Assembly (NCBI GenBank): GCA_003820375.1
Contig: RPQH01000006.1
Location: 8,861-72,860, forward strand
DNA: 64,000 nucleotides
From: Ignavibacteriota bacterium
GTDB lineage: Bacteria > Bacteroidota > Ignavibacteria > Tepidaquicellales > OLB5
Reading direction: 5' to 3'
Shown piece after piece: positions 22,035 to 47,906 of this stretch. Under the pieces are notes generated by a model. It saw nothing but the letters and a program-made list of their open reading frames with translations, ran no database searches and was not told the DNA's origin. How positions within the stretch are numbered: the stretch's first letter is position 1; the number at the start of each line of letters is the position of its first letter. The position numbers and the translations under genes are program-made.

Positions 22035-22037
22035 ATT

Positions 22038-24848: not shown

Positions 24849-24854
24849 TAGCTG

Positions 24855-26355: not shown

Positions 26356-26371
26356 TTATCAGAAATATTTT

Positions 26372-26968
26372 TTATTTATTATTAATAAAATATTTTCGGT
26401 AATCGGCCATAGTATTTATATTTGCAAGAACATTTTCACTTTTAACCGGGATACCTATTTTATTAAACTCGTGCAATATATCCCTCAGGTTTGAATTAAT
26501 ATTTTTTTCTTCTTTTAATCTCCTGATTATCTTTTCACCTATTAAAACCGGATGTCCTGACTTATCATTATAAACAGGAATCACATAACGTTCAATGTTT
26601 CTTTTATTATACATTTTCTTGAGCAGAAGAACACTAATAAACGGGTTGTCAGCATTCTGAATAAATAAGTAAGATTTTTCGTCTGCTTCAGCCAAACCAA
26701 GCGATAATGAATAAAATCTTCCACGCTCCTGATGCTCGTTTATTGTTACTTTTATGTTATAACTGTCTTCTAATTTTTTTATAACTGCATTTTCGGAAAA
26801 TTTTTTATTGAGTACGATAATAATCTTCTTACAACCGAGGTTAAAGTAAGCCTTAATAATTTTCTCAATAAAAGTCATACGCTCCGAATAGGAGAGAAAA
26901 AGTTTTGGTTTATTAGTTCTGGCCGAGTTACCGCCTGCTAACACAACAGCAGTCAAATTTTTTTTCAT
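26372..26968 (-). CDS. MobA/MocA-like nucleotidyltransferase (molybdenum cofactor cytidylyl/guanylyl-transferase)
   Basis: 198 aa. 'AVVLAGGNSAR' NTP-transferase motif. Sits at the head of the Mo-enzyme operon. Confidence 0.75.
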   Translation of the reverse strand: MKKNLTAVVLAGGNSARTNKPKLFLSYSERMTFIEKIIKAYFNLGCKKIIIVLNKKFSENAVIKKLEDSYNIKVTINEHQERGRFYSLSLGLAEADEKSYLFIQNADNPFISVLLLKKMYNKRNIERYVIPVYNDKSGHPVLIGEKIIRRLKEEKNINSNLRDILHEFNKIGIPVKSENVLANINTMADYRKYFINNK

Positions 26969-28290: not shown

Positions 28291-28372
28291 TAATTAATAA
28301 TGTTTACGGTTACTTATTAATAATATAATAAGTTTTACAGCTGCTATTTAATAATTTAAATAAGGTACAGCC

Positions 28373-29665
28373 TTGTCTAAAGAAGTAGAAAAAGAAAAGA
28401 GCATGGTTCTCCAGAAGGAGATGGTTGCCCGTTTGTTTGATGAACTCAGCGCTGCAAATGAAACAGGCAAAAAAGTTGTCTATACATTTGTTCCCGGTAA
28501 TCTATCAGAGCTGATACTTGCATTCGATATGCTTCCCGTATACCCGGAAATAAATGCTTTGCAGTCCGGAATGAGGAAGCTTTCGGGAAACTATATCCGT
28601 GAGGCTGAAAAGTTCGGGCATTCGGAAGATGTTTGTACATATGTGAAATGTGATATAGGTATGATGCTGAGCGGAAATATCGGACCTACAGGAAAAAAAC
28701 TGCCTGACCCGGACCTTTTACTCCTTAGTTATACAGGGTGCTTTACTTTTATGAAATGGTTTGAGAACCTTGAAAAGCTTTATCCCGGTGTTCCTATTGC
28801 AATGCTTCATACTCCTTACCAGGAGAGCGGAAAAATAACACCTGATATGACTGAATATATGGTAAAGCAGATTAAAGAAGAAGTGATTCCAAAAATGGAA
28901 TTGGTATCAGGCAAAAAGCTGGATGAAGAAAAGTTAAATGCAATTATTCAGAACTCAATTGAAATTGAAGACCTTATAGTGAAGATTTTTGATACTACGA
29001 AAAATGTCCCGTCTCCAATTGATGCATATTTCGCAGGTGTGTATTACATAGGACCAATCAATATCGGGTTCAGAGGGACTAAAGACGCAGTTGATTATTA
29101 CACAGAGCTTTTAAAAGAAATTGAATACAGAGTAGAAAACAAGCTTGGTCCTGTAACCCCGGAAGGAGTAATGGAAGAAAGATTCCGGCTTGTAGTTGAA
29201 GGACCTCCTAACTGGACAAACTTCAGGGAGTTCTGGAAGTTATTTTATGACCATGGTGCTGTAGTTGTTGCCTCTACTTACACTAAAGTAGGCGGTATGC
29301 ATGACCTGGGATTCAGGCATGATGTTAAGCGTCCGTTTGAAAGCTTAGCTGAATATTGTATGAATTGTTATACTAATTTAAATCTTACACAAAGGATTAG
29401 CCTGCTGTCTAAATATATAAAAGATTACAATGCTGACGGGCTTCTTGTTAACTCAATAAAAAGCTGTAATTCATTTTCTGCAGGTCAGCTTATAATGATG
29501 AGAAAAATAGAGGAAGACCTTGAAACCCCCGTAGGCTTTATAGAATCCGACCTGGTTGACCCGAGATATTTTTCTTTCTCGAATATCAAAAACAGGCTTG
29601 ATTCTTTTTTCCAGATGCTTGACCAGCGAAGAGTTATTTTAAAAGATAAAACAGCAGTGATATGA
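28373..29665 (+). CDS. bcrB: benzoyl-CoA reductase subunit B (beta)
   Basis: 430 aa with a TTG start (an alternative ATG lies 10 codons in). Same dehydratase/BCR catalytic-subunit family ('VVYTFVPGNLSELILAFDMLPVYPE', 'LLVNSIKSCNSFSAGQ'). Overlaps the next gene by 4 nt. Confidence 0.75.
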   Translation: MSKEVEKEKSMVLQKEMVARLFDELSAANETGKKVVYTFVPGNLSELILAFDMLPVYPEINALQSGMRKLSGNYIREAEKFGHSEDVCTYVKCDIGMMLSGNIGPTGKKLPDPDLLLLSYTGCFTFMKWFENLEKLYPGVPIAMLHTPYQESGKITPDMTEYMVKQIKEEVIPKMELVSGKKLDEEKLNAIIQNSIEIEDLIVKIFDTTKNVPSPIDAYFAGVYYIGPINIGFRGTKDAVDYYTELLKEIEYRVENKLGPVTPEGVMEERFRLVVEGPPNWTNFREFWKLFYDHGAVVVASTYTKVGGMHDLGFRHDVKRPFESLAEYCMNCYTNLNLTQRISLLSKYIKDYNADGLLVNSIKSCNSFSAGQLIMMRKIEEDLETPVGFIESDLVDPRYFSFSNIKNRLDSFFQMLDQRRVILKDKTAVI

Positions 29666-31047
29666 ATAAATATTATTTAGGCGTTGACCTTGGCTCAACA
29701 ACATCCAAAGCAGTTATCATTAACGATAGAGATGAGATAATTGGCAGGGGGATAACAAATACCCGCGCAAACTACAGGGTAGCTGTTGATATCGCACGGC
29801 TGGAGTCTATATACAATGCAAGATTTTTTTTAATAAAAAAACTTCTTAATGAAGAAATAAAGATAAATCCGATTTATCAAAGATATCTTGATGATATTGA
29901 AAAAGCTTTCCAGTACCTGCAGTTTAAAAAAAGATTAAGCAGCTTATTAAGCCAGTTAAAACTTACAGTTGAGTCACGTTTTTCTGATTTTATCAGGGAT
30001 AAAATATATACAAACATAGAAAATATAATAGAGAAGATTGACACTTTAATAAAAGATGAATATTTGAGCGGTAATTTGGGTTCAAAGAACCAATTTTTCA
30101 GAGATATTGTAAATGAAAAATATCACGATGAAGTTACAGCACTGGATATAGATATGTTTGAACCGTTAATGCTTGCTTTTGATAAAAGCATTACGCCGGT
30201 AGAAAATGAAATGGTTGAATTTGATTTCAGGGAGCTTGTTTACGATGCTATGAGCATTCTCGAAGATAAATATAACGGTCTGGCAAACAGAACCTATAAT
30301 GATGTAAGTGTTCATTTTGATGCTGAGCTTAATCTATTGAAGGGCAGCTACGGCAAAATAACAGATACATTCAAGGAGCATCTTGACAGAGTTGCCGGGC
30401 AGGATTTTCACATTTCGAATATGGTTGGCACAGGTTACGGCAGGGCACTGCTACCATTCCCGGAAGAGTGCATTAAATCAGAGATTCTTTGCCATGCATT
30501 CGGAGCACATGCAATATTTCCCGGAACAAGAACCGTACTCGATATCGGCGGGCAGGATACTAAAGCAATTCAGGTTGATTCGCACGGACTGGTAACAAGC
30601 TTTTATATGAATGACAGGTGTGCTGCAGGTTGCGGAAGATACCTCGGTTATATAGCCGATGAATTAAATATTTCACTTAATGAATTAGGCTCAACAGCTC
30701 TTAGCGCAACTAAAGAAACTAATATCTGTTCAACCTGCACTGTATTTGCCGGTGCAGAGCTGAGAGAACAATTAAATGTAGGCGAAAAGCGTGAGGATAT
30801 TCTTGCCGGACTTCATAAGGCAATTGTAATGCGTGCAATGTCATTAATAGCCCGTTCCGGCGGTGTCAGAAATGAATTTACTTTCACAGGCGGTGTTGCA
30901 AGAAATAAAGCTGTTTTAAAATATGTTACCGAGCTTGTTAAAAAAAATTACGGGGATGATTTGAAGATCAACATACATACAGACTCTATTTTTATGGGTG
31001 CATTAGGCGGTGCAATGTTTGCAAGAAGAAATGTTAACATAAATTAA
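29662..31047 (+). CDS. bcrA: benzoyl-CoA reductase subunit A (alpha, ATP-binding, long form)
   Basis: 461 aa. BcrAD_BadFG ATPase motifs 'LGVDLGSTTSKAV', 'DIGGQDTKAI', 'MNDRCAAGCGRYL' and 'CSTCTVFAGAE', with a roughly 190-aa insertion after the first phosphate loop, as in BcrA/BadF. Confidence 0.85.
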   Translation: MNKYYLGVDLGSTTSKAVIINDRDEIIGRGITNTRANYRVAVDIARLESIYNARFFLIKKLLNEEIKINPIYQRYLDDIEKAFQYLQFKKRLSSLLSQLKLTVESRFSDFIRDKIYTNIENIIEKIDTLIKDEYLSGNLGSKNQFFRDIVNEKYHDEVTALDIDMFEPLMLAFDKSITPVENEMVEFDFRELVYDAMSILEDKYNGLANRTYNDVSVHFDAELNLLKGSYGKITDTFKEHLDRVAGQDFHISNMVGTGYGRALLPFPEECIKSEILCHAFGAHAIFPGTRTVLDIGGQDTKAIQVDSHGLVTSFYMNDRCAAGCGRYLGYIADELNISLNELGSTALSATKETNICSTCTVFAGAELREQLNVGEKREDILAGLHKAIVMRAMSLIARSGGVRNEFTFTGGVARNKAVLKYVTELVKKNYGDDLKINIHTDSIFMGALGGAMFARRNVNIN

Positions 31048-31107
31048 ATTTTCATTTGTTAAACATAGCTGTACAATAAAGATTGTATAAGCAATAAATA
31101 AACAAAT

Positions 31108-31953
31108 ATGTCAAACGAAATAATTACACTTGGTATAGATGTAGGCGGAAGCTACATAAAAGCTGCCTTGATGCATTATTCAAATAACTGCACCATAATT
31201 GATAAAAAGTGTGAGAAGGTCAGGAAAAGAAATCCTTCTGTATTATCCGAAGAAATTATAGAATACCTGTTGGAAAAAAATAATCTTAAACACACAGATA
31301 TAGCATATTCTGCATCAACAGGCGAAGGCGAAATGGTAACACGGAAGACCGGGCATTTCTACAGCATGACTACACATGCCAAAGGCGGGCAGTTCTTTTT
31401 TCCCGAAGCAAGAACTGTTGTTGATATGGGTGCTCTTTATGTCAGGGCGATAAAAATAAATCATGAGGGTAAAGTACTGGATTATAAAATGACCGGACAG
31501 TGTGCTTCAGGTTCAGGGCAGTTTATTGAGAATATTTCAAGGTATCTCGGCCTGGCTATAGAAGAAGTCGGCAGTATTTCACTGCAGTCTCAAAACCCGG
31601 AAACTCCTTCCGGTATTTGTGCAGTACTGGCTGAAACCGATGTAATTAATATGGTATCAAGAGGAATTTCTACTCAAAACATAATCAAAGGGATACATTT
31701 ATCCATAGCAAACAGAGTCATACGTTTGCTGTCATCATTAAAAGCTGAATCCCCGATATTTTTAACCGGCGGAATGGCTATGAATACCGGTATGGTACAG
31801 GCTATTAATGAATTGAAAACCGAAAGCAAATACAAATGGGATATTACTACTAATGATGATGCAATTTATGCAGGAGCATACGGCGCTGCTTTGTGGAGCG
31901 GATTCAGGTTTTTTAAATTGAAAGAAAAGAAAAGCATTATATATGCTGCTTAA
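31108..31953 (+). CDS. bcrD: benzoyl-CoA reductase subunit D (delta, ATP-binding, short form)
   Basis: 281 aa. 'LGIDVGGSYIKAA', 'MTGQCASGSGQFIE' and 'SGICAVLAETDVIN'. The size matches BcrD/BadG. Confidence 0.85.
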   Translation: MSNEIITLGIDVGGSYIKAALMHYSNNCTIIDKKCEKVRKRNPSVLSEEIIEYLLEKNNLKHTDIAYSASTGEGEMVTRKTGHFYSMTTHAKGGQFFFPEARTVVDMGALYVRAIKINHEGKVLDYKMTGQCASGSGQFIENISRYLGLAIEEVGSISLQSQNPETPSGICAVLAETDVINMVSRGISTQNIIKGIHLSIANRVIRLLSSLKAESPIFLTGGMAMNTGMVQAINELKTESKYKWDITTNDDAIYAGAYGAALWSGFRFFKLKEKKSIIYAA

Positions 31954-32026: not shown

Positions 32027-33751
32027 ATGCAAGTCATTGAATCGGGAAAAAAATTAGGAGCTTTAATTCCTAATATTGCTACAATGCTAAGCAATAACCA
32101 AAAAAAATATTCCAGCAGAATAATTTATCAGGAAAGAATAAATAACAGTTATGCTGGTATTACATGGAATGAGTTTTTAAGCAAGATAGAAAATATTGCA
32201 TTCAACCTGAAAAATTTTGATTTTCAAGCAGGCGATAAGGTTATGGTATTTTCAAAGAACCGGCTTGAAATGCTTCTGCTCGAGCTTGCGGTGATGTCTT
32301 CAGGCGGTATATCCGTTCCAATTTTTTTCAATTATAATGAGGGTACTGTTGAATCGTTAATAAACCATTCGGATGCTAAGTTTATTGCCGTTGGTGACAA
32401 GTCGCAGCTAGACAGGGTAAATCCTTCTTTAAAGTTAAAAAGGATTTTTTCATTTGATGAAATTACTGATAATAATTATAATAACCTTACCTGGTTTTCA
32501 GAATTGCTTAAGGATAAAAACGGAAACAGCTCATTCCTGAATTTTGATTCTCAGCCCGATGATATATGCCTTAATATGTACACTTCAGGAACAATGGGCA
32601 GGCAAAAATGTGTCCAGTTAACTCATAAAAATATTTTATCTCAGCAGGCGGCTTTAAAATTAATATGGAATGTCGATGAAAACGACAGGTTCTTAAGTTA
32701 CTTACGCTGGCATCACAGCTTTGGCGGGATATTCGAAAAATTTACTGCTTTATATAATGGCGCTGCAATTTCTCTTGAATCAAGCAATGGCTTGAATCCG
32801 GATACTATATTAGAAAACTGGAAGCTGGTAAAGCCGACAATTTTCTTCAGTGTTCCGATGATATACCACTCACTTATCGATATGACATTAAGGGATAAAG
32901 AGATAGAAAAATGTTTCTTCCATGAAGAACTGAAATTTGTTTTTACAGCAGCAGCTCCGCTTCCGCATCATATATCGGATGAATTTGAAAAACGGAAAAT
33001 AAATGTGCTTGAAGGGTGGGGACTAACCGAAACTTCACCATGCTGTACAGTAACAGATCCGGAATTAAAACGGGAACCGGGCGTAATAGGTTTTCCTATA
33101 CCCGGTGTAAAGATAAGGTTAGCTGATGATAATGAAATGCAGGTTAGCGGTCCCAATATTATGGTCGGTTATTATAAGAATGATGAGGAAAATGAAAAAA
33201 GCTTTACTGAAGACGGATGGTTCTGTACGGGTGATATCGGAGAGCTCACCGATAAAGGATTTAAGCTTATTACACGAAAAGACAGGATATTTAAATTATC
33301 CAATGCAGAGAAAATTATTCCTACAGAACTGGAAAACATAATAACCAATAAGTGTCATTATATATCATATGCATTGGTTGAAGGGAACGGGAGAAATTAT
33401 CCTGTTGCATTGCTGTTTCCTGATAAAATGCTGCTGGAAGAATCTAAAAACGGACATCATATCGATATTCATGATTGTAACTGTCCAAAAGACCTTTGCG
33501 AACTGTCAGATTGCTTAAAAGGATGCCTTATAAATATTAACAACGGCTTAAAGCAAAAATATACTGTAATAAAAGCTGCTATGATTATAGATGATGCATT
33601 GAAGGTTGATAATGGTACACTTACCCCATCACTTAAGCTTGCTCCAAATAATGTTAAAGGTATTTATAAAGCTCATTTGGAAAAACTATATGGTTCAATT
33701 GAACCCGTTAAAGAACAAACCTATATAATTTATTTAAATGGAAAGCAATAA
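32027..33751 (+). CDS. AMP-forming acyl-CoA ligase (FadD/long-chain-type rather than canonical benzoate-CoA ligase type)
   Basis: 574 aa. 'YTSGTMGRQKCV' (AMP-binding box), 'GWGLTETS' and 'TGDIGELTDKGFKLITRKDRIFKLSNAEKIIP'. Confidence 0.85.
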   Translation: MQVIESGKKLGALIPNIATMLSNNQKKYSSRIIYQERINNSYAGITWNEFLSKIENIAFNLKNFDFQAGDKVMVFSKNRLEMLLLELAVMSSGGISVPIFFNYNEGTVESLINHSDAKFIAVGDKSQLDRVNPSLKLKRIFSFDEITDNNYNNLTWFSELLKDKNGNSSFLNFDSQPDDICLNMYTSGTMGRQKCVQLTHKNILSQQAALKLIWNVDENDRFLSYLRWHHSFGGIFEKFTALYNGAAISLESSNGLNPDTILENWKLVKPTIFFSVPMIYHSLIDMTLRDKEIEKCFFHEELKFVFTAAAPLPHHISDEFEKRKINVLEGWGLTETSPCCTVTDPELKREPGVIGFPIPGVKIRLADDNEMQVSGPNIMVGYYKNDEENEKSFTEDGWFCTGDIGELTDKGFKLITRKDRIFKLSNAEKIIPTELENIITNKCHYISYALVEGNGRNYPVALLFPDKMLLEESKNGHHIDIHDCNCPKDLCELSDCLKGCLININNGLKQKYTVIKAAMIIDDALKVDNGTLTPSLKLAPNNVKGIYKAHLEKLYGSIEPVKEQTYIIYLNGKQ

Positions 33752-33771: not shown

Positions 33772-34989
33772 ATGATTGAAATAAAATCGACCGGCTTATT
33801 AAAAGAAGTAATGAAGAACTATTTCACCGGTATTGGGACCGGTGGAAGAAAAGTTGCGTGGTGTACAAGTGTTGGACCGGCAGAACTTCTCCGGTCGTTT
33901 GGATTTGATGTATATTTTCCGGAGAACCATGGTGCTTTGCTTGGTGCATCAAGAATAGCAGATATATATATCCCCAATGCACAGAAAAACGGTTACTCAA
34001 ACCAGATTTGTTCATACACAACCAGTGATATAGGTGCTTTCCTTTGCAATGAAACTCCGTTGAAAAAGCATTACGGCTTAGATTCTATACCAAAACCCGA
34101 TTTAATAGTTTACTGTACAAATCAATGCAGAGAAGTTGAAGACTGGTTTACTTTTTATGCTGATAATTTTAAATGCCCTGTTGTTGGAATTAATCCTCCA
34201 AGATACTTAGATGAGGTAAGAATTGAAGAGGTTGAAGTTGTCATAAGCCAGTTTAAAAAGCTTATTACTGTTTGTGAATCAGTCACCGGTATAAAGTTTG
34301 ATTTGGATAAATTCAAAAATGTATTAAAATTAAGTAAGGAAGCCACCTTATTATGGCAGGATGTATTAAAGACTTCAACTTCTATCCCTGCACCATTTAA
34401 CTTTTTTGACGGCACAATCCATATGGGTCCAATTGTAGTTATGAGAGGAACACAGGAAGCAAAGGATTATTACAATGTTTTATTAAGCGAGCTGCAGCAG
34501 TTTGTTGAGCAAGGCAAGGGATTTTTGAAAGAGGAAAACTGCAGGCTTTTCTGGGATGGAATGCCCATATGGGGCAAGATAAGAGTATTATCCGATTTGT
34601 TCTCGCAAAGCAACGCAGTGGTTGTTGCTTCAACATATTGCAATAGCTGGATATTTGATGATTTTGATGAAGAAAATCCGCTTGAATCTTCTGCTTTAGC
34701 ATATATTAAAATTTTTATAAACAGAAGTGAAAAAGCAAAAATTGAGTTTTTTAAAAAATGGTTCGAGGAGTACAAAATAGATGGTATTATTTATCATGAT
34801 TCCAAAACCTGTTTTAACAACTCAAACTCCAGGTTTGGATTGCCTCTGCGGTTAAAAAAAATTACTCAAATTCCTTACCTTGTTGTGGAAGGTGACCTGA
34901 ACGACCTGAGATTCTTTTCTGAAGGACAAACAATAAACAAGATAGAAACTTTCGTTGAGCAAATAGAAAACCAGAAAATTTATAAATGA
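33772..34989 (+). CDS. single 2-hydroxyacyl-CoA dehydratase / BCR catalytic-subunit-family protein (HgdA/B-like)
   Basis: 405 aa. 'KVAWCTSVGPAELLRSFGFDVYFPENH', 'ICSYTTSD' and 'IIYHDSKTCFNNS' are family-typical Cys-containing blocks. No partner subunit gene lies adjacent. Confidence 0.7.
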   Translation: MIEIKSTGLLKEVMKNYFTGIGTGGRKVAWCTSVGPAELLRSFGFDVYFPENHGALLGASRIADIYIPNAQKNGYSNQICSYTTSDIGAFLCNETPLKKHYGLDSIPKPDLIVYCTNQCREVEDWFTFYADNFKCPVVGINPPRYLDEVRIEEVEVVISQFKKLITVCESVTGIKFDLDKFKNVLKLSKEATLLWQDVLKTSTSIPAPFNFFDGTIHMGPIVVMRGTQEAKDYYNVLLSELQQFVEQGKGFLKEENCRLFWDGMPIWGKIRVLSDLFSQSNAVVVASTYCNSWIFDDFDEENPLESSALAYIKIFINRSEKAKIEFFKKWFEEYKIDGIIYHDSKTCFNNSNSRFGLPLRLKKITQIPYLVVEGDLNDLRFFSEGQTINKIETFVEQIENQKIYK

Positions 34990-35027: not shown

Positions 35028-36896
35028 ATGGAAAACGAAATAAACAAAAACGGCACTCCTCTTCCAAAAATTGGAATTATCGGCCTGGGTCCCGTAGGTA
35101 TGATTCTGGCTGTTCATTTAAAGGAAGCCGGATGCGACCTTGCTATTTGTGATAATGATAAGATAAAAATTAATTTAATAAGAAAAGAAGGAATCCGCTT
35201 AGAAGAGAGTATTAATAAGCACTGTTTCTTTGATAAGGTTTATACAAGCATTCAGGAACTTAAAGACTTTATGCCCGATATTTTAGTTTTTTCTTTAAAG
35301 ACCCACCAGATGTCGGCTGTTCTTTCTGAAGCAGCTAAATTAAAACATGATAACCTCTGTGTAGTAAGTGCACAGAACGGTATTGATTCCGAGAAAATGC
35401 TGTCACGTGTTTTTGGAGAATCAAGAACACTCAGGTTTGTAGTAAATTATGCAGGTAATTTAAATGCACCGAATATAGTAAAAGTAACGTTTTTCATCCC
35501 GCCTAATTACATAGCTTCAATGGATGACAGTCACGCTAATGAAGCAAAATATATAGCCGGGCAGTTAAACAGTATTAACCTGACAACAGAAGCTGTTAAT
35601 TCATATGATATTTTAAAAAGAATATGGGAGAAGACCATCTTAAATTCTGCACTCAGTGCAATCTGTGGTATCGGGAAGTTAACAATGAAAGAAGCAATGG
35701 ATATCCCCGATACGGAAGAGATTGTTGAAATGCTCATCCAGGAAGCTGTCGAAGTTGCTGAAGCTGAAAAAATTAAGTTTGAAGATGATTTTATAAGAAA
35801 ATGCATGCGATACCTTAGAAGAGGCGGCAATCACTTCCCCTCGCTTGCAGTTGACCTGATAAATAATAAAGAAACGGAAATAGATTATTTTAATGGTGCG
35901 ATAGTTGAATACGGCAGAAAACACTATATCAGAACATCATTGAACCTGGCATTTACCAATATGGTAAAAGCAATGACGCACAAAAATATTATTTCACAGT
36001 TCTCGGGAACAGGTTTAAATCCGCCCGAAAAGAAATCAAAGCATCACCAGATACATTTGCATCACGATAGAAAAGCTGCTCCAATTAAGGGCGAAAATCA
36101 TTTCCTTGGAATTGACCTCGGCTCAGCCTATATCAAATTTACTGTGATCGATTCCAATGATGAAATTGTTTTTAATTCAACGCTTAAAACTTTAAACAGG
36201 GATAAAATAGCCTTAAGGCATGTTCTGGAAGCAATCCGTTCTGAATACCCGGTCAGTTATACATGTTCCACAGGGTACGGAAGAAAGCATTTTCATGATT
36301 CTGAAGTAATCAAAACTGAGATAAACTGCGCAGCAGCAGCAGTTTCTTATTACTATCCGGGACCGAAAAATATTATCGATATTGGCGGTGAAGACATAAA
36401 GATAATCAGGTGTGATGATTTTAATAATGTAGAGAATTTTTATCTGAATGATAAATGTGCGGCAGGCACAGGCTCTTTTATTTCCGAGATTGCCGAACGT
36501 GCAGATATTAAAGTATCGGAGATGAGTGACCTGGCTTCTAAATCAACATTTGCAAAAGAGCTTAACAGTTTTTGTACAGTGTTTGCTAAAACTGAAATCA
36601 TGAGCTGGTTATTCGATGGAATATCGGTTGGTGATATTTCAAAAGGGATATATATATCACTGGCAAATAAGGTATCCCGCCTCAGGGTTGATACAAATGT
36701 TCCATCCTATATGATAGGAGGGGTTATTGAATTCCACCCTTATCTTAAAACACTGTTAGAAGAAAAATTCTTATCCGAGGTAAGTATTCTTGAAAAGCCC
36801 CAGCACGTAGTATCGTTTGGTGCTGCCTTAATCGCAAAGCAATCTTATTTAAAACAACTTCAAAAAGAAGAACTGATAAAAAGCAAATTAATATGA
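35028..36896 (+). CDS. fusion protein: N-terminal ketopantoate-reductase (PanE/ApbA)-family NAD(P)H oxidoreductase + C-terminal HgdC-type [4Fe-4S] activator ATPase
   Basis: 622 aa. N-terminal part: 'KIGIIGLGPVGMILA' Rossmann, 'WEKTILNSA' and 'PSLAVDLINNKETEIDYFNGAIVEYG' (ApbA_C-like). C-terminal part from about residue 357: 'LGIDLGSAYIKF', 'DIGGEDIKII', 'LNDKCAAGTGSF' and 'NSFCTVFAKTEI'. Confidence 0.8.
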   Translation: MENEINKNGTPLPKIGIIGLGPVGMILAVHLKEAGCDLAICDNDKIKINLIRKEGIRLEESINKHCFFDKVYTSIQELKDFMPDILVFSLKTHQMSAVLSEAAKLKHDNLCVVSAQNGIDSEKMLSRVFGESRTLRFVVNYAGNLNAPNIVKVTFFIPPNYIASMDDSHANEAKYIAGQLNSINLTTEAVNSYDILKRIWEKTILNSALSAICGIGKLTMKEAMDIPDTEEIVEMLIQEAVEVAEAEKIKFEDDFIRKCMRYLRRGGNHFPSLAVDLINNKETEIDYFNGAIVEYGRKHYIRTSLNLAFTNMVKAMTHKNIISQFSGTGLNPPEKKSKHHQIHLHHDRKAAPIKGENHFLGIDLGSAYIKFTVIDSNDEIVFNSTLKTLNRDKIALRHVLEAIRSEYPVSYTCSTGYGRKHFHDSEVIKTEINCAAAAVSYYYPGPKNIIDIGGEDIKIIRCDDFNNVENFYLNDKCAAGTGSFISEIAERADIKVSEMSDLASKSTFAKELNSFCTVFAKTEIMSWLFDGISVGDISKGIYISLANKVSRLRVDTNVPSYMIGGVIEFHPYLKTLLEEKFLSEVSILEKPQHVVSFGAALIAKQSYLKQLQKEELIKSKLI

Positions 36897-38155
36897 AATC
36901 TTATCACAACAGGGAAAAAGGAATTGGAATTTTATATGACGGCGTTTATTTCGTTAACGGAGCAAGAACACCGTTCGGCAAATTCTGCGGAACCCTGGCA
37001 AAAGTTTCACCTACTGATTTAGGTATTTATGCATCAAAAGCAGCATTTAAAAATTCTGCCTTAACTCCTGAAGAAATAGATCAGGTTATTGTCGCAAATA
37101 TAGGTCAGGCATGTACTGACGCATATTTTCTGGCAAGACATATATCACTTTTCAGCGGTGTTCCAATAACGGTACCGGCAATGATGGTTCAAAGGATTTG
37201 TGCATCAGGATTGGAAACAATTAATTCAGCCGCAGAACAAATAACACTTGGAAAAGCTGAAAAAGTTTTGTGCTGCGGAACAGAGAATATGTCACTTGCT
37301 CCCACCGTGAGTTACGGAAACAGGATGGGCTACGGATTGGGGAAAATTGAATTTAAGGATATGCTCTGGGAAGCGCTTGATGATACAGCCTGCGGATATC
37401 CAATGGGTGAAACAGCAGAAAATCTTGCTAAAAAATACAGTATTACACGCCGGGAAATTGATGAATTTGCAAAACAATCCCATGACAGGGCTGCGGAAGC
37501 AGTCCAGAAAGGGTTTTATTGTGATGAGATTTCACCTGTCAGCTCTGAAGTATTTAGTGTTGATGGATTGAAACAAAGGAAAGTAAATCTTCCGAAAAAT
37601 GTAACAGCTTTTAATTCGGATGAAAATATCAGGCAAACTACCGTTGAAGCTCTGGGCAGGCTGCCTTCTGCTTTTATTAAAGACGGAGTACAGACAGCGG
37701 GGAATTCCAGCGGAATTGTAGATGGTGCAGCAGCTGGTATCGTCGCTTCAACTAAAGCTGTTGAAGAATACGGTTTAAAGCCGCTCTCTAAAATTATTGG
37801 CGTTGCTTCATGCGGGGTTGATCCTAAATATATGGGAATCGGTCCTGTTCCCGCAATTGAAATTTTGCTGGAGCTTACCGGATTAAATCTTGATGAAATA
37901 GACCTGTTCGAAATTAATGAAGCTTTTGGTGCTCAATATATTGCATGTGAAAAAGAACTAAATCTTGACAGAAATAAAGTAAACGTTAACGGCGGCGCAA
38001 TTGCAATAGGACATCCTCTTGGTGCAACAGGTATAAGACAGGTTTTAACTCTCTCAAGAGAATTGATTAACAGAAAAGTTAAGTATGGAATAGCAACAGC
38101 CTGTGTTGGCGGAGGACAGGGCACAGCAGTTTTAATTGAAAATATAAATTCATAA
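36893..38155 (+). CDS. acetyl-CoA C-acyltransferase (thiolase)
   Basis: 420 aa. Active-site 'RICASGLETI', 'NVNGGAIAIGHPLGATG' and 'CVGGGQG'. Overlaps the upstream gene by 4 nt. Confidence 0.9.
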   Translation: MKSYHNREKGIGILYDGVYFVNGARTPFGKFCGTLAKVSPTDLGIYASKAAFKNSALTPEEIDQVIVANIGQACTDAYFLARHISLFSGVPITVPAMMVQRICASGLETINSAAEQITLGKAEKVLCCGTENMSLAPTVSYGNRMGYGLGKIEFKDMLWEALDDTACGYPMGETAENLAKKYSITRREIDEFAKQSHDRAAEAVQKGFYCDEISPVSSEVFSVDGLKQRKVNLPKNVTAFNSDENIRQTTVEALGRLPSAFIKDGVQTAGNSSGIVDGAAAGIVASTKAVEEYGLKPLSKIIGVASCGVDPKYMGIGPVPAIEILLELTGLNLDEIDLFEINEAFGAQYIACEKELNLDRNKVNVNGGAIAIGHPLGATGIRQVLTLSRELINRKVKYGIATACVGGGQGTAVLIENINS

Positions 38156-38200: not shown

Positions 38201-39265
38201 ATGGACAATAAGATTTATTCATGGCAAATGACCGAGATGAAGAAAGATTTTCAGTTGACAGAAAAACCATTTCCGGAGCTTAAAGAAGGAATGGCTTTAG
38301 TCCGGGTTTCCGGGTGCGGAGTTTGTCATACTGATTTAAGCTTCTGGTATTTCGGAGTTCAAACCAAACATCCTCTGCCGCTGACTCTTGGACATGAGAT
38401 AAGCGGTACTGTTATTGATGGCCCTGCAGAATGGCTCAACAAAAAAGTAATTATTCCCGCTGTGCTTCCGTGCGGTGAGTGTGATTTATGTAAAAGCGGA
38501 AGAAGCAACATTTGCAGGAAGCAATTAATGCCCGGAAATGATTTTGACGGCGGATTTTCTTCTCACATTGTTGTTCCATACAAGTATTTATGTCCCGTTC
38601 CGGATGAAGTGTTAAAGTGTTATTCAATGGAGCAGCTTTCTGTTATCGCAGATGCAATTTCTACCCCATACCAGGTAATAGAAAAGTCGGAACTTGTGCC
38701 TGGTGACCTTGCAATAACAATAGGTGTCGGTGGCGTAGGAATTTACGGAGCGCAAATTGCTAAAATAAAAGGCGCAAAAGTTATTGCACTCGATATCAAT
38801 GATGACAGGTTAGAAATCGCCAAATCGGTTGGTGCAGATGAAGTATTAAATATCAAAGATATGGATATCAAATCAATAAAAGAAAAGATAAAAGTAATTG
38901 CAAAAGAGCTGAATGCCCCGAAGCACTCATGGAAAATATTTGAGTTTTCCGGTACAAAAGCAGGACAGGAATTAGCTTATAATTTAATAACTTTTGCATC
39001 AACTCTTTCTATAGTTGGTTTTACTCTTGACAGAGTTGAAGTCAGGTTAAGCAATCTTATGGCATTTGATGCCAAACTAATTGGTACATGGGGATGTAAA
39101 CCGGAATTATATCCTGAAGTTGTTGACCTTGTTGCAAAAGATAAAATTAAGCTTAACCGGTTTGTTGAATTATTTCCTTTGTCAAAAATAAACGAGGTGT
39201 TTAAAAATACTTTGGAACATAAATACAGCAAACGTTCAGTACTAATACCTGATTTTAATAATTAA
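38201..39265 (+). CDS. had: Zn-dependent alcohol dehydrogenase, probable 6-hydroxycyclohex-1-ene-1-carbonyl-CoA dehydrogenase
   Basis: 354 aa. 'GCGVCHTDLSFWYFG', 'GHEISG', a structural-Zn Cys cluster 'CGECDLCKSGRSNIC' and Rossmann 'GVGGVGIYGAQ'. It lies directly upstream of the oah-like gene. Confidence 0.7.
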   Translation: MDNKIYSWQMTEMKKDFQLTEKPFPELKEGMALVRVSGCGVCHTDLSFWYFGVQTKHPLPLTLGHEISGTVIDGPAEWLNKKVIIPAVLPCGECDLCKSGRSNICRKQLMPGNDFDGGFSSHIVVPYKYLCPVPDEVLKCYSMEQLSVIADAISTPYQVIEKSELVPGDLAITIGVGGVGIYGAQIAKIKGAKVIALDINDDRLEIAKSVGADEVLNIKDMDIKSIKEKIKVIAKELNAPKHSWKIFEFSGTKAGQELAYNLITFASTLSIVGFTLDRVEVRLSNLMAFDAKLIGTWGCKPELYPEVVDLVAKDKIKLNRFVELFPLSKINEVFKNTLEHKYSKRSVLIPDFNN

Positions 39266-39278
39266 CAAAAAATTTACA

Positions 39279-40379
39279 ATGAAAATACTTAATTCGCATA
39301 ACCTAAACGAAATCCAATATTCAGAAATAATAGTCGAAAAAAGACCATGTCTGCAAAAAGATGGGACTCCGGCAGAAGGGTTATTCAATACATGGATAAT
39401 ATTGAATAATGCCAAACAGTTTAATTCTTATACAACACAGGCAGTCAAAGAAGTTATACTTGCATTCCGTGAAGCTTCAAATGATAGAAGCACAATTGCT
39501 GTTGTTTTTACTGCAGTAGGTGATAAAGCATTTTGTACAGGTGGAAACACTAAAGAGTATGCAGAATATTATGCAGGCAATCCACAGGAATATAAACAAT
39601 ATATGCGGTTATTCAATGATATGGTTTCAGCTATATTAATGTGTGATAAACCTGTTATTAACCGGGTAAACGGCATGCGTATCGGCGGAGGACAGGAAAT
39701 CGGAATGGCTTGTGATTTTTCTATTGCACAGGATTTAGCAAGATTCGGGCAGGCAGGTCCTAAACATGGCAGTGCACCCGATGGCGGCTCAACTGACTTT
39801 CTGCATCTTTTTGTAGGAATTGAAAAAGCTATGTACTCTTGCACAATATGCGATCCCTGGAGTGCACATGAAGCTTTAAGATTTAGCCTTATAACCGAAG
39901 TTGTTCCGGCTTTAAAGCTGGATGGAAAATATATTCCAAATCCTCTTGTACATACCGATAAATGGGTAAATGAGTTTGGACAAATAGTATATGGTACAGC
40001 AAAAAAAGGTGAAGATTTAGCACAGGCAAAAGAATTTTTAAAACAATGTGAAGTAGATTTTACTTTGTTTGATGAAGTAATAGAACGCTACTGTACTAAG
40101 TTAATGTACCTGTTCCCGAATTGTTTAAGCAAGACATTAAATTCATTGAGGAAGAAGAAGCTTGAACACTGGGATAAAAATAAAGAAAGTAACCGTGACT
40201 GGCTTGCATTAAATATGATGACGGAAGCGAAAGCAGGCTTCAAAGCTTTTAATGACGGACCTAAAGATAACAGGGAAGTTGATTTTGTAAGATTAAGGCA
40301 ATTGCTTGCAGGCGGCTGTGAGTGGAGTGATGAGCTTATCAGGGAGATTTCACCTCAATTTCAAAAAGTAAATGATTAA
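39279..40379 (+). CDS. oah: 6-oxocyclohex-1-ene-1-carbonyl-CoA hydrolase (ring-cleaving crotonase, BamA/Oah)
   Basis: 366 aa, long-form crotonase. 'FCTGGNTKEYAEYYAGNPQEYKQYMRLFNDMV...CDKPVINRVNGMRIGGGQEIGMACDFSIAQDLARFGQAGPKHGSAPDGGSTDF' matches my recollection of the conserved BamA/Oah core. Confidence 0.8.
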   Translation: MKILNSHNLNEIQYSEIIVEKRPCLQKDGTPAEGLFNTWIILNNAKQFNSYTTQAVKEVILAFREASNDRSTIAVVFTAVGDKAFCTGGNTKEYAEYYAGNPQEYKQYMRLFNDMVSAILMCDKPVINRVNGMRIGGGQEIGMACDFSIAQDLARFGQAGPKHGSAPDGGSTDFLHLFVGIEKAMYSCTICDPWSAHEALRFSLITEVVPALKLDGKYIPNPLVHTDKWVNEFGQIVYGTAKKGEDLAQAKEFLKQCEVDFTLFDEVIERYCTKLMYLFPNCLSKTLNSLRKKKLEHWDKNKESNRDWLALNMMTEAKAGFKAFNDGPKDNREVDFVRLRQLLAGGCEWSDELIREISPQFQKVND

Positions 40380-40399
40380 CCTTAAAATTAAATTTTAAT

Positions 40400-41173
40400 A
40401 TGAACAAAATTAAATTAGATTATTTGCAAAATGATTCTGTTGCACATATTGTTTTAAATGCACCAAAAGGAAATGTTCTTGATGCAGTTATGATGAACGA
40501 ACTAACAGAAGTATTCAGTGAACTAAAAACAAATAATAATATTAAAGTAATTACATTTGAAGGTGAAGGTAATCATTTTTCATTCGGGGCAAGTGTGGAT
40601 GAGCATAAAAAAGAACTAGCGGCAGCTATGCTAAAGAGCTTCCATGAATTATTTTACAATATCATAAACCTTAGTATTCCAACAATTGCAAAAATATCAG
40701 GACAGTGTCTTGGCGGGGGACTTGAGCTTGCATTAATTTGCAATTTCTTATTTGCAGATAAAACGGCAAAGCTTGGGCAGCCGGAAATAATCCTGGGGGT
40801 ATTCCCGCCGCCGGCTTCTGTAATTCTTCCGTTAAAAATTGGGTCGGCTAAAGCGGAAGAAATTTTATTAACAGGTAAAACTATTTCTGCTGATGAAGCA
40901 AAGGCTATAGGTATTGTGAATGAAGTATTCGAAAATAAAAATATTCTTGAAAATAGTGTAAACGAATTCATAGAAAAAAACCTGCTTCCAAAGAGTGCAT
41001 CATCTTTAAGATATGCTGTGAAAGCGGCAAGATCTAATTTTAATTGCGTACTAAGAGATAACCTGAAAGTTCTTGAATCATTATATGTCAATAAGCTGAT
41101 GGAGACAAATGATGCAAACGAGGGAATTAATTCATTTTTAGAAAAAAGAAAGCCGGTTTGGCAGAATAATTAA
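40400..41173 (+). CDS. dch: enoyl-CoA hydratase family, probable cyclohexa-1,5-diene-1-carbonyl-CoA hydratase
   Basis: 257 aa crotonase fold ('FSFGASVDEH', 'GQCLGGGLELALICNFLFA'). The functional call rests on its position next to had and oah. Confidence 0.6.
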   Translation: MNKIKLDYLQNDSVAHIVLNAPKGNVLDAVMMNELTEVFSELKTNNNIKVITFEGEGNHFSFGASVDEHKKELAAAMLKSFHELFYNIINLSIPTIAKISGQCLGGGLELALICNFLFADKTAKLGQPEIILGVFPPPASVILPLKIGSAKAEEILLTGKTISADEAKAIGIVNEVFENKNILENSVNEFIEKNLLPKSASSLRYAVKAARSNFNCVLRDNLKVLESLYVNKLMETNDANEGINSFLEKRKPVWQNN

Positions 41174-41193
41174 TATATATTTCTAATTAATAA

Positions 41194-43203
41194 ATGAAAA
41201 ATATAAATAATGTAGGAGTTATTGGGGCAGGTACAATGGGCTCAGCTCTTGCTCAAAAGTTTGCACAGGAAGGTTTTTGTGTTACTCTGTGCGATAGAGA
41301 ATCGAAATTCGTTAACAACGGAATTGAAAAAATTAAAAATACTTTGAACGAAGGGGTTGAGAGAAGAATTTTTTCAATAGAGCAAACGGAGAAAATATTA
41401 AATAATATTTCAGGAAGTACAGAATTATCAGACCTTAAAAAATGCGATATTGTTATAGAAGCAATCTTTGAAAATTTTGATGCAAAAATCAATTTATTTA
41501 AGGATTTAAGAGATGTTCTTAATCCGGATACTATAGTTGCAACCAATACTTCATCATATTCTGTTGATGAACTCTCAAACTTTATATCCCAGCCTGAAAG
41601 ATTTATTGGTTTACATTACTTTTATCATGCAGCAAAAAACCGCCTTGTTGAAATAATACCCGGCTCAAAGACTTCTGATGAAGTTATAAAATCCGTTCAG
41701 AATTTTTCAATACTCTCCGGTAAAGACCCGATAATGTGCAAAGATTCATATGGCTTTGTTGTAAACCGTTTCTTTGTACCGTGGTTAAATGAAGCTGTTA
41801 GACTGTTGGATGAGCTAACAGCATCAACGGGAGAAATCGATGCGATTTGCATGAAAGCATTTTCAATTTCCATGGGGCCATTTGCATTAATGAATGCTAC
41901 CGGTGTTCCGATTGCATATCATGCTCAAAAGACGCTGGAAAAATTCGGAGATTTTTATAAAACTTCGGAATTTTTAAAAAGGCAGGCAGAATATAATAAG
42001 CCATGGGATATTGACGAAGCAGATTTAAAGGATATAAGCGAAAATGTTTTTAAAAAAGTAAGTGAAAGAATGCTGGGTGTAGTTTTCCTGGTTTGTTCAC
42101 AAATTCTTGATGAAAAAATTTGTTCTGCAGTTGAAATAAACAGGGGTGCACGAATCGGCTTAAGATGGAGAAGAGGTCCGATTGATCTAATGAAAAAAGC
42201 AGGCAAAGAAAAGGTCGCGGCATTAATTAATAAATTTACAAACAGGTATACTATAGATTTACCAGCTTCAATTGATGAGAAGAATTGGGCAATGGAATAC
42301 GTTAAACTTGAGAAGTTTAATGAAAATGCACTCATAACAATCAACCGTCCTGAGGATATGAATGCGTTGAATGAGGAGATAATGCAGCAGCTTTCCGAAA
42401 AATTTGATTTGGCAGATAATAACCCGGATATTAAAAGAATATTTATTACCGGTTCAGGAAAAGCTTTTGTTGCCGGTGCAGATATTAAGTTCTTTATTGA
42501 TAATATAAAATCAAAAACACTTGATAATATTATTACATTCACAAAATTCGGACAGCGGGTTTTTAATAAGATAGATAATTCCAATAAAACAGTTATATCA
42601 ATTGTTAATGGACTTACACTTGGCGGAGGTCTTGAACTGGCTTTATGCAGTGATATAATTTTAGCATCCCCGAAAGCTGTATTTGCTTTCCCGGAAACCG
42701 GAATTGGTATTTATCCGGGATTAGGCGGAACGCAGAGAACTCCTGTGAAAATAGGTTCAGGTCTTGCAAAATATTTAATTTATACCGGTGATTTTCTAAA
42801 TGCTGCTGAAGCTGAGAAAATCGGTATTGTAAATGCAGTCATTCAGCCGAATGAAGTTATGGATATTGTAACAGGTGTTAAAGAAATTCCGGGTATAATC
42901 TCAGGAAAAAGAATTTCTGATGAAAGGTATTTAACAATTGAAAAGTTTTTTAATAATTTCCCGGTTAATGAATTAATCTGCGGTGAAGCTTATAAAAACA
43001 ATTTACCCGAAGCATTAGCAGAAAAATTAGTTAAAAAGCTTAAGCAAAAGGCTCCTGTTGCATTAAATATTTCAGAGAAGCTTATAAATGAAGCTAAAGG
43101 CTGTGAATCGGAATTAAATTTCCTTGCTTACATTTTCTCAACTTCAGATGCCTTGCTTGGACTCAGCTCGGTAGGAAAGAAAGTTGAATTTTCGGGTAAG
43201 TAA
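41194..43203 (+). CDS. bifunctional 3-hydroxyacyl-CoA dehydrogenase / enoyl-CoA hydratase
   Basis: 669 aa. N-terminal 'VGVIGAGTMGSALAQ' NAD Rossmann (3HCDH). C-terminal crotonase 'ITINRPEDMNALN...GSGKAFVAGADIKFF...GLTLGGGLELALCSD'. Confidence 0.85.
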   Translation: MKNINNVGVIGAGTMGSALAQKFAQEGFCVTLCDRESKFVNNGIEKIKNTLNEGVERRIFSIEQTEKILNNISGSTELSDLKKCDIVIEAIFENFDAKINLFKDLRDVLNPDTIVATNTSSYSVDELSNFISQPERFIGLHYFYHAAKNRLVEIIPGSKTSDEVIKSVQNFSILSGKDPIMCKDSYGFVVNRFFVPWLNEAVRLLDELTASTGEIDAICMKAFSISMGPFALMNATGVPIAYHAQKTLEKFGDFYKTSEFLKRQAEYNKPWDIDEADLKDISENVFKKVSERMLGVVFLVCSQILDEKICSAVEINRGARIGLRWRRGPIDLMKKAGKEKVAALINKFTNRYTIDLPASIDEKNWAMEYVKLEKFNENALITINRPEDMNALNEEIMQQLSEKFDLADNNPDIKRIFITGSGKAFVAGADIKFFIDNIKSKTLDNIITFTKFGQRVFNKIDNSNKTVISIVNGLTLGGGLELALCSDIILASPKAVFAFPETGIGIYPGLGGTQRTPVKIGSGLAKYLIYTGDFLNAAEAEKIGIVNAVIQPNEVMDIVTGVKEIPGIISGKRISDERYLTIEKFFNNFPVNELICGEAYKNNLPEALAEKLVKKLKQKAPVALNISEKLINEAKGCESELNFLAYIFSTSDALLGLSSVGKKVEFSGK

Positions 43204-43238: not shown

Positions 43239-43268
43239 AAAGCCCATTAATTCATTAACGGGCTTTTT
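43239..43268 (+). terminator. rho-independent terminator closing the aromatic operon
   Basis: aaagcccattaa-ttca-ttaacgggcttt followed by tt. It sits between convergent genes, 36 nt after the stop at 43203. Confidence 0.6.
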
Positions 43269-45803: not shown

Positions 45804-45829
45804 ACTATTTTTTAAGTGAACTAACTTGT

Positions 45830-47170: not shown

Positions 47171-47309
47171 ATAAATTATTTAGCCTTAATAATTTTAGGT
47201 TTATATAGAATGTAATTTTTTTGAAATCTTGATTTTTCACTTTTCTTTGATTAGTGACCGTTCTTTCATAATTTATGTAAGTAATAAAAAATAATAATTC
47301 TTGCATTAA

Positions 47310-47867: not shown

Positions 47868-47906
47868 ATATTTAAGCGGTCATACATGTTTAACTTTTTT
47901 GTTGTT

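Follow-up and report, generated by a model that had tools for sequence, protein, structure and literature searches.

A ketopantoate-reductase-family enzyme fused to a dehydratase-activator-type ATPase is a conserved part of benzoyl-CoA operons in Ignavibacteria and other bacteria

Enzymes of the benzoyl-CoA reductase (BCR)/2-hydroxyacyl-CoA dehydratase superfamily carry out reactions that are among the hardest reductions in biology, and few of their subunit architectures have been characterised. Here, we describe a gene from a 64,000-nucleotide stretch of an Ignavibacteriota genome (contig RPQH01000006.1, hereafter the window), in which a reductase of the ketopantoate reductase (KPR) family is fused to an ATPase of the type that activates such dehydratases. 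The fusion is genuine and is conserved in hundreds of environmental bacteria. It belongs to a trio formed by the reductase, the ATPase and a subunit of the HGD-D family that we call HGDx, with a coenzyme A (CoA) ligase gene before it and a thiolase gene after it, within a Thauera-type benzoyl-CoA operon. We think it reasonably probable that this trio is an undescribed ATP-dependent ketyl-radical system with a single type of catalytic subunit and a fixed part of anaerobic aromatic catabolism in the Fibrobacteres-Chlorobi-Bacteroidetes (FCB) group, including marine Marinimicrobia and Flavobacteriales. Its task would be either a new reaction of a ring-substituted or alicyclic CoA ester, performed in conjunction with a molybdoenzyme resembling 4-hydroxybenzoyl-CoA reductase (4-HBCR), or the key step of a new route from phenylalanine and tyrosine to benzoyl-CoA via aryllactyl-CoA.

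The open reading frame (ORF) of the fusion gene, 35028-36896, is uninterrupted over 622 codons. Pfam recognises three domains in its product, all with scores that far exceed the curated cut-offs: ApbA (PF02558, aa 15-154, 70 bits), ApbA_C (PF08546, aa 194-316, 100 bits) and BcrAD_BadFG (PF01869, aa 360-603, model positions 1-271 of 271, 119 bits). NCBIfam agrees on both halves, with 159.8 bits on TIGR00745 (apbA_panE; cut-off 141) and 159.8 bits on TIGR00241 (acyl-CoA dehydratase activase; cut-off 125). An earlier note on this DNA had described a single 622-aa ORF carrying reductase and activator motifs, and every motif it quoted is found where it said: GLGPVG at aa 19-24, ETEIDYFNG at aa 282-290, NDKCAAGTG at aa 474-482 and FCTVFAKTE at aa 515-523. 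Between the halves, the His/Lys-rich segment KKSKHHQIHLHHDRK occupies aa 335-349 (nt 36030-36074).

To see how widely this architecture occurs, as the note had proposed, 5.8 billion proteins were searched. This search returned 677 relatives, and our statements on architecture refer to the best 120 clusters among them. These clusters are 59-93% identical to the query, 597-649 aa long and cover 94-100% of it, all with the identical three-domain layout. They come from independent assemblies held at NCBI, JGI, ENA and Logan, and the organisms named among them are Ignavibacteria, Saprospiraceae, Cytophagales, Flavobacteriales, Chitinophagaceae and Calditrichota. A Marinimicrobia homologue has the same architecture at 47% identity. 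Because the best 120 independent clusters share this layout, the junction is not a lost stop codon; an assembly or frameshift artefact is ruled out by the continuous frame and by more than 120 independent full-length fused homologues.

Conservation is high in both halves, with a mean column identity of about 0.6-0.9 in alignments of 123 and 46 fusions. The AlphaFold2 model consists of two confidently folded domains with an overall predicted TM-score (pTM) of 0.50, that is, no confident packing of one domain against the other, and the linker is predicted to be disordered (per-residue confidence, pLDDT, below 50 for aa 315-354). No PDB chain spans both halves, whether searched by sequence or by fold. 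The fusion is a flexible tether that joins two folded enzymes.

What kind of reductase is the N-terminal half? Residues N117, K202, N206, S272, D276 and E284, which we take to correspond to N98, K176, N180, S244, D248 and E256 of E. coli KPR, are invariant in the 46 and 123 homologues and align with the equivalent motifs in 8wl1, 2ew2 and 3wfi; G19, G21 and G24 of the GxGxxG motif are also invariant. The earlier note had called this half complete, and since all six catalytic residues are kept, the objection that they might be missing fails. Both its domains and its catalytic residues place it in the PanE/ApbA family in the broad sense. It is not a bona fide 2-dehydropantoate 2-reductase of pantothenate biosynthesis: it lies in a catabolic operon, all equivalog-level KPR models score under their cut-offs (NF005091 114.7 against 252, NF005092 95 against 500, others lower), and E. 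coli PanE is a marginal match (E about 1e-4). Position 42, after strand beta2, is an aspartate, and 43 of 46 sequences have D or E there; from what is generally known of Rossmann folds, such an acidic residue suggests a preference for NADH. In the PDB, the D-mandelate dehydrogenases of Lactobacillus brevis (8wl1) and Enterococcus faecium (3wfi/3wfj/5x20) match it best, both in sequence and in fold. The KPR family includes D-2-hydroxyisocaproate and D-mandelate dehydrogenases, and bulky or aromatic 2-oxo acids are turned into (R)-2-hydroxy acids by such relatives (bioRxiv 10.1101/2024.01.05.573888).

The C-terminal half is a full actin-fold ATPase domain whose nucleotide-binding motifs, including those for phosphate, are invariant (GIDLGS, DIGGED and GGV). 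C477 and C516 are invariant as well and align with the cluster-ligand positions of HadI and HgdC, in line with the earlier description of a complete activator half with both cluster cysteines. Its closest relatives are HadI (4eht, E 7e-37) and HgdC (1hux), followed by MbdQ and MbdP of 3-methylbenzoyl-CoA reductase, and its fold matches 4eht, 1hux and 9gai_D with TM-scores of 0.83-0.86. Orthology to BcrA or BcrD was considered and is ruled out by the NCBIfam equivalog scores (TIGR02259, BcrA, 99 against 578; TIGR02261, BcrD, 68 against 313; TIGR03192, 77 against 380), together with the presence of genuine bcrA and bcrD genes upstream. Activators do not always stand alone, as many proteins of 900-1480 aa hold BcrAD-type domains.

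HGDx, the presumed catalytic partner, is encoded 38 nt upstream of the fusion gene and is itself preceded by the CoA ligase gene. Their presence agrees with the dehydratase link proposed in the earlier note, which missed the benzoyl-CoA operon around them. HGDx scores 224 bits on the NCBIfam model for HadB against 166 for BcrB, and its best PDB sequence match is HadB, the alpha subunit of 2-hydroxyisocaproyl-CoA dehydratase (3o3m_A, 3e-48). Its predicted structure (pTM 0.84) gives TM-scores of 0.85 with HadB, 0.83 with MbdO, 0.82 with BzdO, 0.75 with the double-cubane cluster protein (DCCP) and 0.64-0.68 with beta/gamma-type subunits (HadC 0.64-0.66). Three invariant cysteines that it shares with HadB and BcrB (C80, C119 and C347) make up the three-Cys [4Fe-4S] site. 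Two more are invariant and specific to its clade, C31 (AWCTSVGP) and C290 (STYCNSW); both are absent from BcrB and BcrC, HadB has a serine at the position of C31, and they could provide a fourth cluster ligand or reflect a different type of cluster. The alpha plus beta heterodimer of 2-hydroxyacyl-CoA dehydratases is not seen here, only an alpha-type subunit: no beta-type HGD-D subunit lies beside HGDx in the window or in two of the loci described below (L011 and L018), and a phmmer and motif scan of all ORFs of at least 50 aa in the 64-kb window found no HGD-D gene besides those of HGDx, BcrB and BcrC, and no ferredoxin motif. Assignment of HGDx to the double-cubane proteins was rejected (57 bits against the NF040772 cut-off of 350). 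A search for its homologues returned orthologues at 67-92% identity only and no distant named relatives.

The fusion gene has as its setting a benzoyl-CoA degradation operon with its own BcrCBAD, not an amino-acid fermentation cluster (Table 1). The bcr genes follow the Thauera order and their products match MbdN, MbdO and MbdQ in the PDB. The top PDB matches of the ligase are malonyl-CoA synthetase and oxalate-CoA ligase, at a weak and generic 118 bits; no benzoate-CoA ligase was seen in the operon, and none is among the good matches of this, its only CoA ligase. For the ring-processing genes, TIGR03201 and TIGR03200 score above cut-off and TIGR03189 is the best match. A 12-bp hairpin at 43239-43266 marks the end of the operon; apart from it, a promoter and terminator scan was uninformative. 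In the divergent genes of the molybdoenzyme subunits (21099-24848, minus strand), the gamma ([2Fe-2S]) and alpha (Mo) parts are fused into a 936-aa protein, and the 311-aa FAD subunit has an insertion rich in cysteine (CENRC...CLKCNGDIC...C) that resembles the [4Fe-4S] loop of Thauera HcrB. The alpha part matches 4-HBCR (1rm6_A) with 584 bits against 362 for the next structure and scores 816 on TIGR03194, whose cut-off is 994; since these scores are under the equivalog cut-offs, its substrate may differ. Beside the molybdoenzyme genes lie a 1111-aa MalT/BTAD/TPR regulator (15492-18827) and an Rrf2-family regulator (20667-21092).

Table 1. Features of the window, with the module and its operon first
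Feature	Position	Strand	Basis or remark
Reductase-ATPase fusion gene (KPR/D-mandelate-dehydrogenase-like reductase + HgdC/HadI-type ATPase)	35028-36896	+	622 aa, ATG to TGA
Reductase half (aa 15-316), Rossmann GLGPVG, D42 ending beta2	35070-35975	+	Pfam ApbA + ApbA_C; D-mandelate dehydrogenase PDB matches
His/Lys-rich linker (aa 317-358)	35976-36101	+	column identity 0.24-0.32; 6-44 aa among 123 homologues
ATPase half (aa 359-622), cluster cysteines C477, C516	36102-36893	+	full-length BcrAD_BadFG match; PDB HadI 4eht, HgdC 1hux, MbdQ 9gai_D
HGDx, single alpha/'O'-type HGD-D subunit, 405 aa, presumed catalytic partner	33772-34989	+	profile, PDB and fold matches
bcrC, bcrB, bcrA, bcrD: Thauera-type class I BCR	27112-31953	+	TIGR02263, TIGR02260, TIGR02261 above equivalog cut-offs; TIGR02259 best for BcrA
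AMP-forming acyl-CoA ligase, 574 aa, FadD/MatB/feruloyl-CoA-synthetase-like	32027-33751	+	not of the benzoate-CoA ligase type
Thiolase	36893-38155	+	start overlaps fusion stop by 4 nt (translational coupling)
had (Zn-dependent alcohol dehydrogenase), oah (366-aa crotonase), dch-like (257-aa crotonase), FadB-like 3-hydroxyacyl-CoA dehydrogenase/hydratase	38201-43203	+	NCBIfam
4-HBCR-like molybdoenzyme + short-chain dehydrogenase/reductase (SDR), XdhC, MobA, divergent from operon	21099-26968	-	PDB and NCBIfam matches
gp25 baseplate wedge	62825-63244	-	
Three very large ORFs, no Pfam match	52334-62828	-	
Contractile-injection-system (CIS) tape-measure protein	50871-52337	-	
Two eCIS_core proteins	47907-50279	-	
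AAA ATPase	45830-47170	-	
C39-like peptidase	45216-45803	-	

How far does this arrangement extend? A contig scan with the fusion protein alone found only 8 close loci, and the wider distribution was pieced together by looking up the contigs that encode homologues; individual loci are given L numbers below. The 12-gene order BcrCBAD-ligase-HGDx-fusion-thiolase-Had-Oah-Dch-FadB recurs in 9 further loci, eight on contigs of metagenome-assembled genomes (MAGs) of Ignavibacteria/Bacteroidota and one in GCA_030148165.1. The molybdoenzyme, XdhC, MobA and SDR set is near these nine loci, often together with a hemerythrin gene. This hemerythrin gene recurs beside the operon across many lineages, in L001 (20996-21520), L004, L005, L006, L013, L014 and L016, and was not detected in the window; it may serve O2 sensing or the protection of oxygen-labile enzymes. 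In Marinimicrobia, the fusion is listed in 154 blocks of the collection and has a linker of only 6 residues. Its operon begins with an HisC-type aminotransferase, MarR, BcrCBAD, an 82-aa Cys-rich ORF, the ligase, HGDx and the fusion, and continues with Had, Oah, Dch, an SDR, the thiolase and the gamma, alpha and beta subunits of 4-HBCR. The small ORF, between bcrD and the ligase gene in L019 (6816-7064; CDACFESC and other Cys motifs), matches no known family and is without counterpart in the window.

The fusion itself is not always there. In marine Flavobacteriales, on three independent contigs, reductase and ATPase are unfused genes joined by an ATGA stop/start overlap; the two are also split in L024 and in L018, where the spacer is 128 nt. 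In L016, a single in-frame TGA lies between the two halves (9940-10003), which might reflect read-through, an error of sequencing or a nonsense mutation of recent date. A Myxococcota MAG (GCA_054682455.1; L011, 10001-17576) shows yet another solution, with the reductase fused to HGDx in a 728-aa protein followed by a separate 244-aa ATPase. Downstream of the latter are only three subunits of the xanthine dehydrogenase family, XdhC and MobA, without BCR, ligase or beta-oxidation genes; the alpha subunit of this molybdoenzyme best matches 4-HBCR, and its FAD subunit is without the Fe-S loop. L026, at 67% GC, has the order ligase, reductase, thiolase, Had, Oah, Dch, Mo enzyme, HGDx. In L018 (1-10583), where there is no BCR, the trio sits between a thiolase with an ADP-forming acyl-CoA synthetase and a caprolactamase/oxoprolinase-like hydantoinase A/B pair, and L010 holds one distant fusion (40% identity) alone. 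Finally, in Asgard archaea (Hermod- and Promethearchaeota MAGs; L012, 1341-3200, and L022, 1477-3336), a reductase with 39% identity is joined to an enoyl-CoA hydratase (crotonase) in one protein. This gene adjoins a four-subunit Bzd-like BCR, a ferredoxin and an 843-aa Fe-S flavoprotein in L022 (3705-10829) and an electron-transfer flavoprotein alpha subunit in L012; no HGDx is present in the cluster.

According to a rough neighbour-joining tree, fusion or fission occurred at least twice. The conclusion is robust that HGDx, reductase and ATPase are one functional module whose fusion state is evolutionarily fluid, and equally so that CoA activation and thiolysis go with the module, as do, very persistently, the benzoyl-CoA pathway and a 4-HBCR-like enzyme. 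Because natural split versions and alternative fusions exist, the fusion is best seen as a Rosetta-stone link, not as a mechanistic necessity. The physical coupling that the earlier note had put at the centre of its proposal is therefore dispensable; its underlying 2-hydroxy-acid logic, as far as sequences can tell, still appears to be the most economical reading.

To explain these observations we tentatively favour, at somewhat less than even odds, a scheme in which the trio is an entry branch that takes aromatic 2-oxo acids via (R)-2-hydroxyacyl-CoA to enoyl-CoA and then to (4-hydroxy)benzoyl-CoA. By analogy with HgdC, HadI and BCR, the ATPase half would dimerise and bridge one [4Fe-4S] cluster through C477 and C516, and ATP hydrolysis would send a low-potential electron into the cluster of HGDx, where a CoA thioester would react by way of a ketyl radical. 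The reductase half, on its tether, would use NAD(P)H, probably NADH given D42, to turn a 2-oxo acid into the (R)-2-hydroxy acid: phenylpyruvate or 4-hydroxyphenylpyruvate would become (R)-aryllactate. The ligase would then make aryllactyl-CoA, and its dehydration by HGDx with the ATPase would give cinnamoyl- or 4-coumaroyl-CoA. Chain shortening by the FadB-like enzyme, the SDR and the translationally coupled thiolase would yield benzoyl- or 4-hydroxybenzoyl-CoA, the very substrates of the co-encoded BcrCBAD and 4-HBCR-like enzymes, which would continue the pathway together with Dch, Had and Oah. Fusion would here bring co-expression and a fixed stoichiometry through a flexible tether, not substrate channelling.

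This entry-branch scheme gives each gene of the operon a job and suits proteolytic FCB bacteria. It draws on the nearest relatives of all three components, D-mandelate dehydrogenases for the reductase, HadB for HGDx and HadI/HgdC for the ATPase. A CoA-activating enzyme is encoded directly upstream of the module in nearly all contexts, including the unrelated ADP-forming synthetase of L018, and a thiolase directly downstream or adjacent; the co-encoded 4-HBCR-like enzyme is consistent with a tyrosine branch. Phenyllactyl-CoA dehydratase is a precedent for the dehydration chemistry, and a cinnamoyl-CoA to benzoyl-CoA route via this enzyme has been discussed, as a hypothesis only (PMC13416013). 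Several observations weigh against the scheme. No beta-type partner was found with HGDx in the window, L011 or L018. To our knowledge, all characterised 2-hydroxyacyl-CoA dehydratases are alpha/beta heterodimers, and with its extra invariant C31 and C290 the cluster chemistry of HGDx may differ from theirs. There is no conserved aromatic aminotransferase in the cluster, only the HisC-type gene of Marinimicrobia and an Asp-aminotransferase-like gene of the window that is not syntenic in other loci. In the Marinimicrobia operon just one crotonase is spare, and the thiolase and the FadB-like or SDR genes are required anyway for 3-hydroxypimelyl-CoA. In L011 and L026, HGDx travels with the molybdoenzyme, not with beta-oxidation genes. 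The Asgard reductase, fused to a crotonase beside a BCR and without HGDx, hints at a CoA-ester substrate. Finally, if the reductase uses a free 2-oxo acid, the fusion would join non-consecutive functions, since the ligase step intervenes, and a 1:1 fusion would not be expected of an activator required in catalytic amounts only.

The strongest rival, which we find rather doubtful but only a little less likely, places the trio in the (hydroxy)benzoyl-CoA pathway itself, as a third ATP-dependent ketyl-radical enzyme whose step is functionally coupled to the 4-HBCR-like molybdoenzyme. HGDx, probably as a homodimer, would reduce or dehydroxylate a ring-substituted benzoyl-CoA or a hydroxylated alicyclic CoA ester, and the ring ketone or alcohol so formed would be reduced (or oxidised) by the reductase half. 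All of the more than 20 inspectable loci with a full-length orthologue (at least 43% identity) sit in a BCR/4-HBCR-like operon, and HGDx stays by the molybdoenzyme even in rearranged or reduced clusters (L011, and L026, where it directly follows the Mo subunit). The Asgard reductase-crotonase beside a Bzd-like BCR is the classic pairing of hydratase and dehydrogenase on CoA esters. The fold of HGDx, a substrate-binding subunit of the 'O/alpha' type with its own clade-specific cysteines, lies equally near those of MbdO and BzdO (TM 0.82-0.84), and a 1:1 fusion fits stoichiometric ATP use, as in reductases. Yet sequence profiles put HGDx nearer the dehydratase alpha subunit than BcrB and the ATPase nearest the dehydratase activators, and no 2-oxo-acid reductase motif of the D-mandelate dehydrogenases is missing from the reductase half. 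Moreover, the operon already has a canonical Had, no known reaction needs such a combination of enzymes, and in L018 and L010 no BCR or molybdoenzyme genes lie near the trio or the fusion. We hold it unlikely that the module is instead a 2-hydroxyacyl-CoA dehydratase for a non-aromatic acid, feeding the lower benzoyl-CoA pathway at glutaconyl- or crotonyl-CoA, for example from 2-oxoglutarate via (R)-2-hydroxyglutaryl-CoA to glutaconyl-CoA (or in reverse), or from 2-oxoisocaproate. The best-characterised relative of HGDx is indeed the 2-hydroxyisocaproyl-CoA dehydratase alpha subunit, L018 pairs the trio with an ADP-forming acyl-CoA synthetase and a caprolactamase/oxoprolinase-like pair, and the top PDB matches of the ligase are dicarboxylate ligases, although these matches are weak and generic. 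Genes for a 2-oxoacid:ferredoxin oxidoreductase follow the operon in L001, but in L001 only, and a conserved link to 2-oxoglutarate:ferredoxin oxidoreductase is rejected on that account. Neither glutaconyl-CoA decarboxylase nor glutaryl-CoA dehydrogenase was seen in any cluster, and the persistent linkage to a 4-HBCR-like enzyme would be left unexplained.

Could HGDx be a relay rather than a catalyst, forming with the ATPase an ATP-driven supply of low-potential electrons that replaces ferredoxin for the molybdoenzyme? HGDx does adjoin the Mo enzyme in L011 and L026, no ferredoxin gene was found in the window, C31 could be a fourth cluster ligand, and the FAD subunit of L011 is without the [4Fe-4S] loop through which Thauera 4-HBCR takes up electrons from ferredoxin. 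However, the FAD subunit of the window itself has that loop, HGDx keeps the fold of an alpha-type substrate subunit, and a catalytically intact, flavin-free NAD(P)H hydride-transfer domain would have no role. This purely contextual idea strikes us as quite improbable. Least credible, and effectively refuted, is that the N-terminal half is an ordinary ketopantoate reductase placed there by chance, or the fusion an assembly or sequencing artefact. The public name '2-dehydropantoate 2-reductase', the above-cut-off TIGR00745 subfamily score and the in-frame TGA of L016 might speak for it; against these stand the equivalog-level KPR models far under their cut-offs (114.7 against 252), the marginal match of E. 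coli PanE, a gene position fixed in a catabolic operon across phyla, and the more than 120 independent full-length fused homologues.

We found no paper that describes the fusion, the trio or such an operon in Bacteroidota, Ignavibacteria or Marinimicrobia. The earlier impression of an undescribed architecture is borne out to this extent, but the architecture is not rare: it is abundant in MAGs of the FCB group. In public records the fusion goes by '2-dehydropantoate 2-reductase' or 'hydroxyacyl-CoA dehydratase activating ATPase', and hundreds of database entries under the former name are probably misannotated. What emerges is a third HGD-D/ATPase set that has one type of catalytic subunit and an NAD(P)H reductase of its own and is conserved within the benzoyl-CoA operons of several phyla; its carriers include lineages abundant in the ocean and in wastewater systems. 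If it led aromatic amino acids into the benzoyl-CoA pathway, it would open a new anaerobic route of phenylalanine and tyrosine catabolism in protein-degrading FCB bacteria; if it acted on a ring intermediate or served the molybdoenzyme, it would add a new reaction to anaerobic aromatic metabolism. We envision that the variable fusion states (reductase-ATPase, reductase-HGDx, reductase-crotonase and unfused) offer a clear experimental handle.

Elsewhere, the window contains a cluster that resembles an extracellular contractile injection system (45216-63244, minus strand; last rows of Table 1) and two secreted proteins with Por_Secre_tail domains for sorting by the type IX secretion system (5252-6904 and 18848-20140). 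These sorted proteins and a GC content of 34% fit an Ignavibacteria/Bacteroidota-like host.

How does the module compare with characterised systems? The clostridial dehydratase systems for (R)-2-hydroxyisocaproyl-CoA, LdhA-HadA-HadI-HadBC, and for phenyllactyl-CoA, FldH-FldA-FldI-FldBC, place the same four roles side by side as here: 2-oxo-acid reductase, CoA activation, ATP-dependent activator and HGD-D catalytic subunit. In contrast to them, one alpha-like subunit stands for alpha and beta, an AMP-forming ligase for the CoA-transferase, and a KPR-family reductase, fused to the activator, for the D-2-hydroxyacid dehydrogenase family, all within a benzoyl-CoA operon. Taken singly, the reductase half (aa 13-316 in its best matches, 8wl1/3wfi/3wfj/5x20) shares the motifs W-x-K-x-x-x-N and H-[YF]-P-S...D...T-E-I-D-x-x-N-G and the acidic residue after beta2 with these D-mandelate dehydrogenases and with the L. 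lactis PanE D-2-hydroxyisocaproate dehydrogenase. It differs from them in being only about 23-25% identical, in its fusion to an ATPase and in a possible CoA-ester substrate. The ATPase half (aa 359-614) aligns end to end with HadI of C. difficile (4eht) and HgdC of A. fermentans (1hux) at about 30% identity and TM-scores of 0.83-0.85, and it has the two cluster cysteines (NDKCAAGTG, FCTVFA) and the motifs for ATP binding in common with them. Unlike these activators, it is preceded by a 320-aa NAD(P)H reductase, has a presumed single alpha-type partner and is encoded in an aromatic-degradation operon beside its BcrA and BcrD paralogues.

Class I BCRs, of the Thauera BcrCBAD type and the MbdONPQ/BzdNOPQ type, belong to the same superfamily as HGDx (O/B-type fold, TM 0.83) and the ATPase, and BcrCBAD is encoded in their operon. 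The trio departs from them in its scores on the BcrA and BcrD models (99 and 68 bits against 578 and 313) and on BcrB (HGDx, 166 against 487), and it has no gamma/N-type partner and only one type of ATPase. One HGD-D-type subunit paired with one homodimeric BcrAD-type ATPase has a single precedent, DCCP with its reductase DCCP-R (6eno, 7yyl); HGDx is set apart from it by its score (57 bits against a cut-off of 350), its TM-score of 0.75 and a different cysteine pattern.

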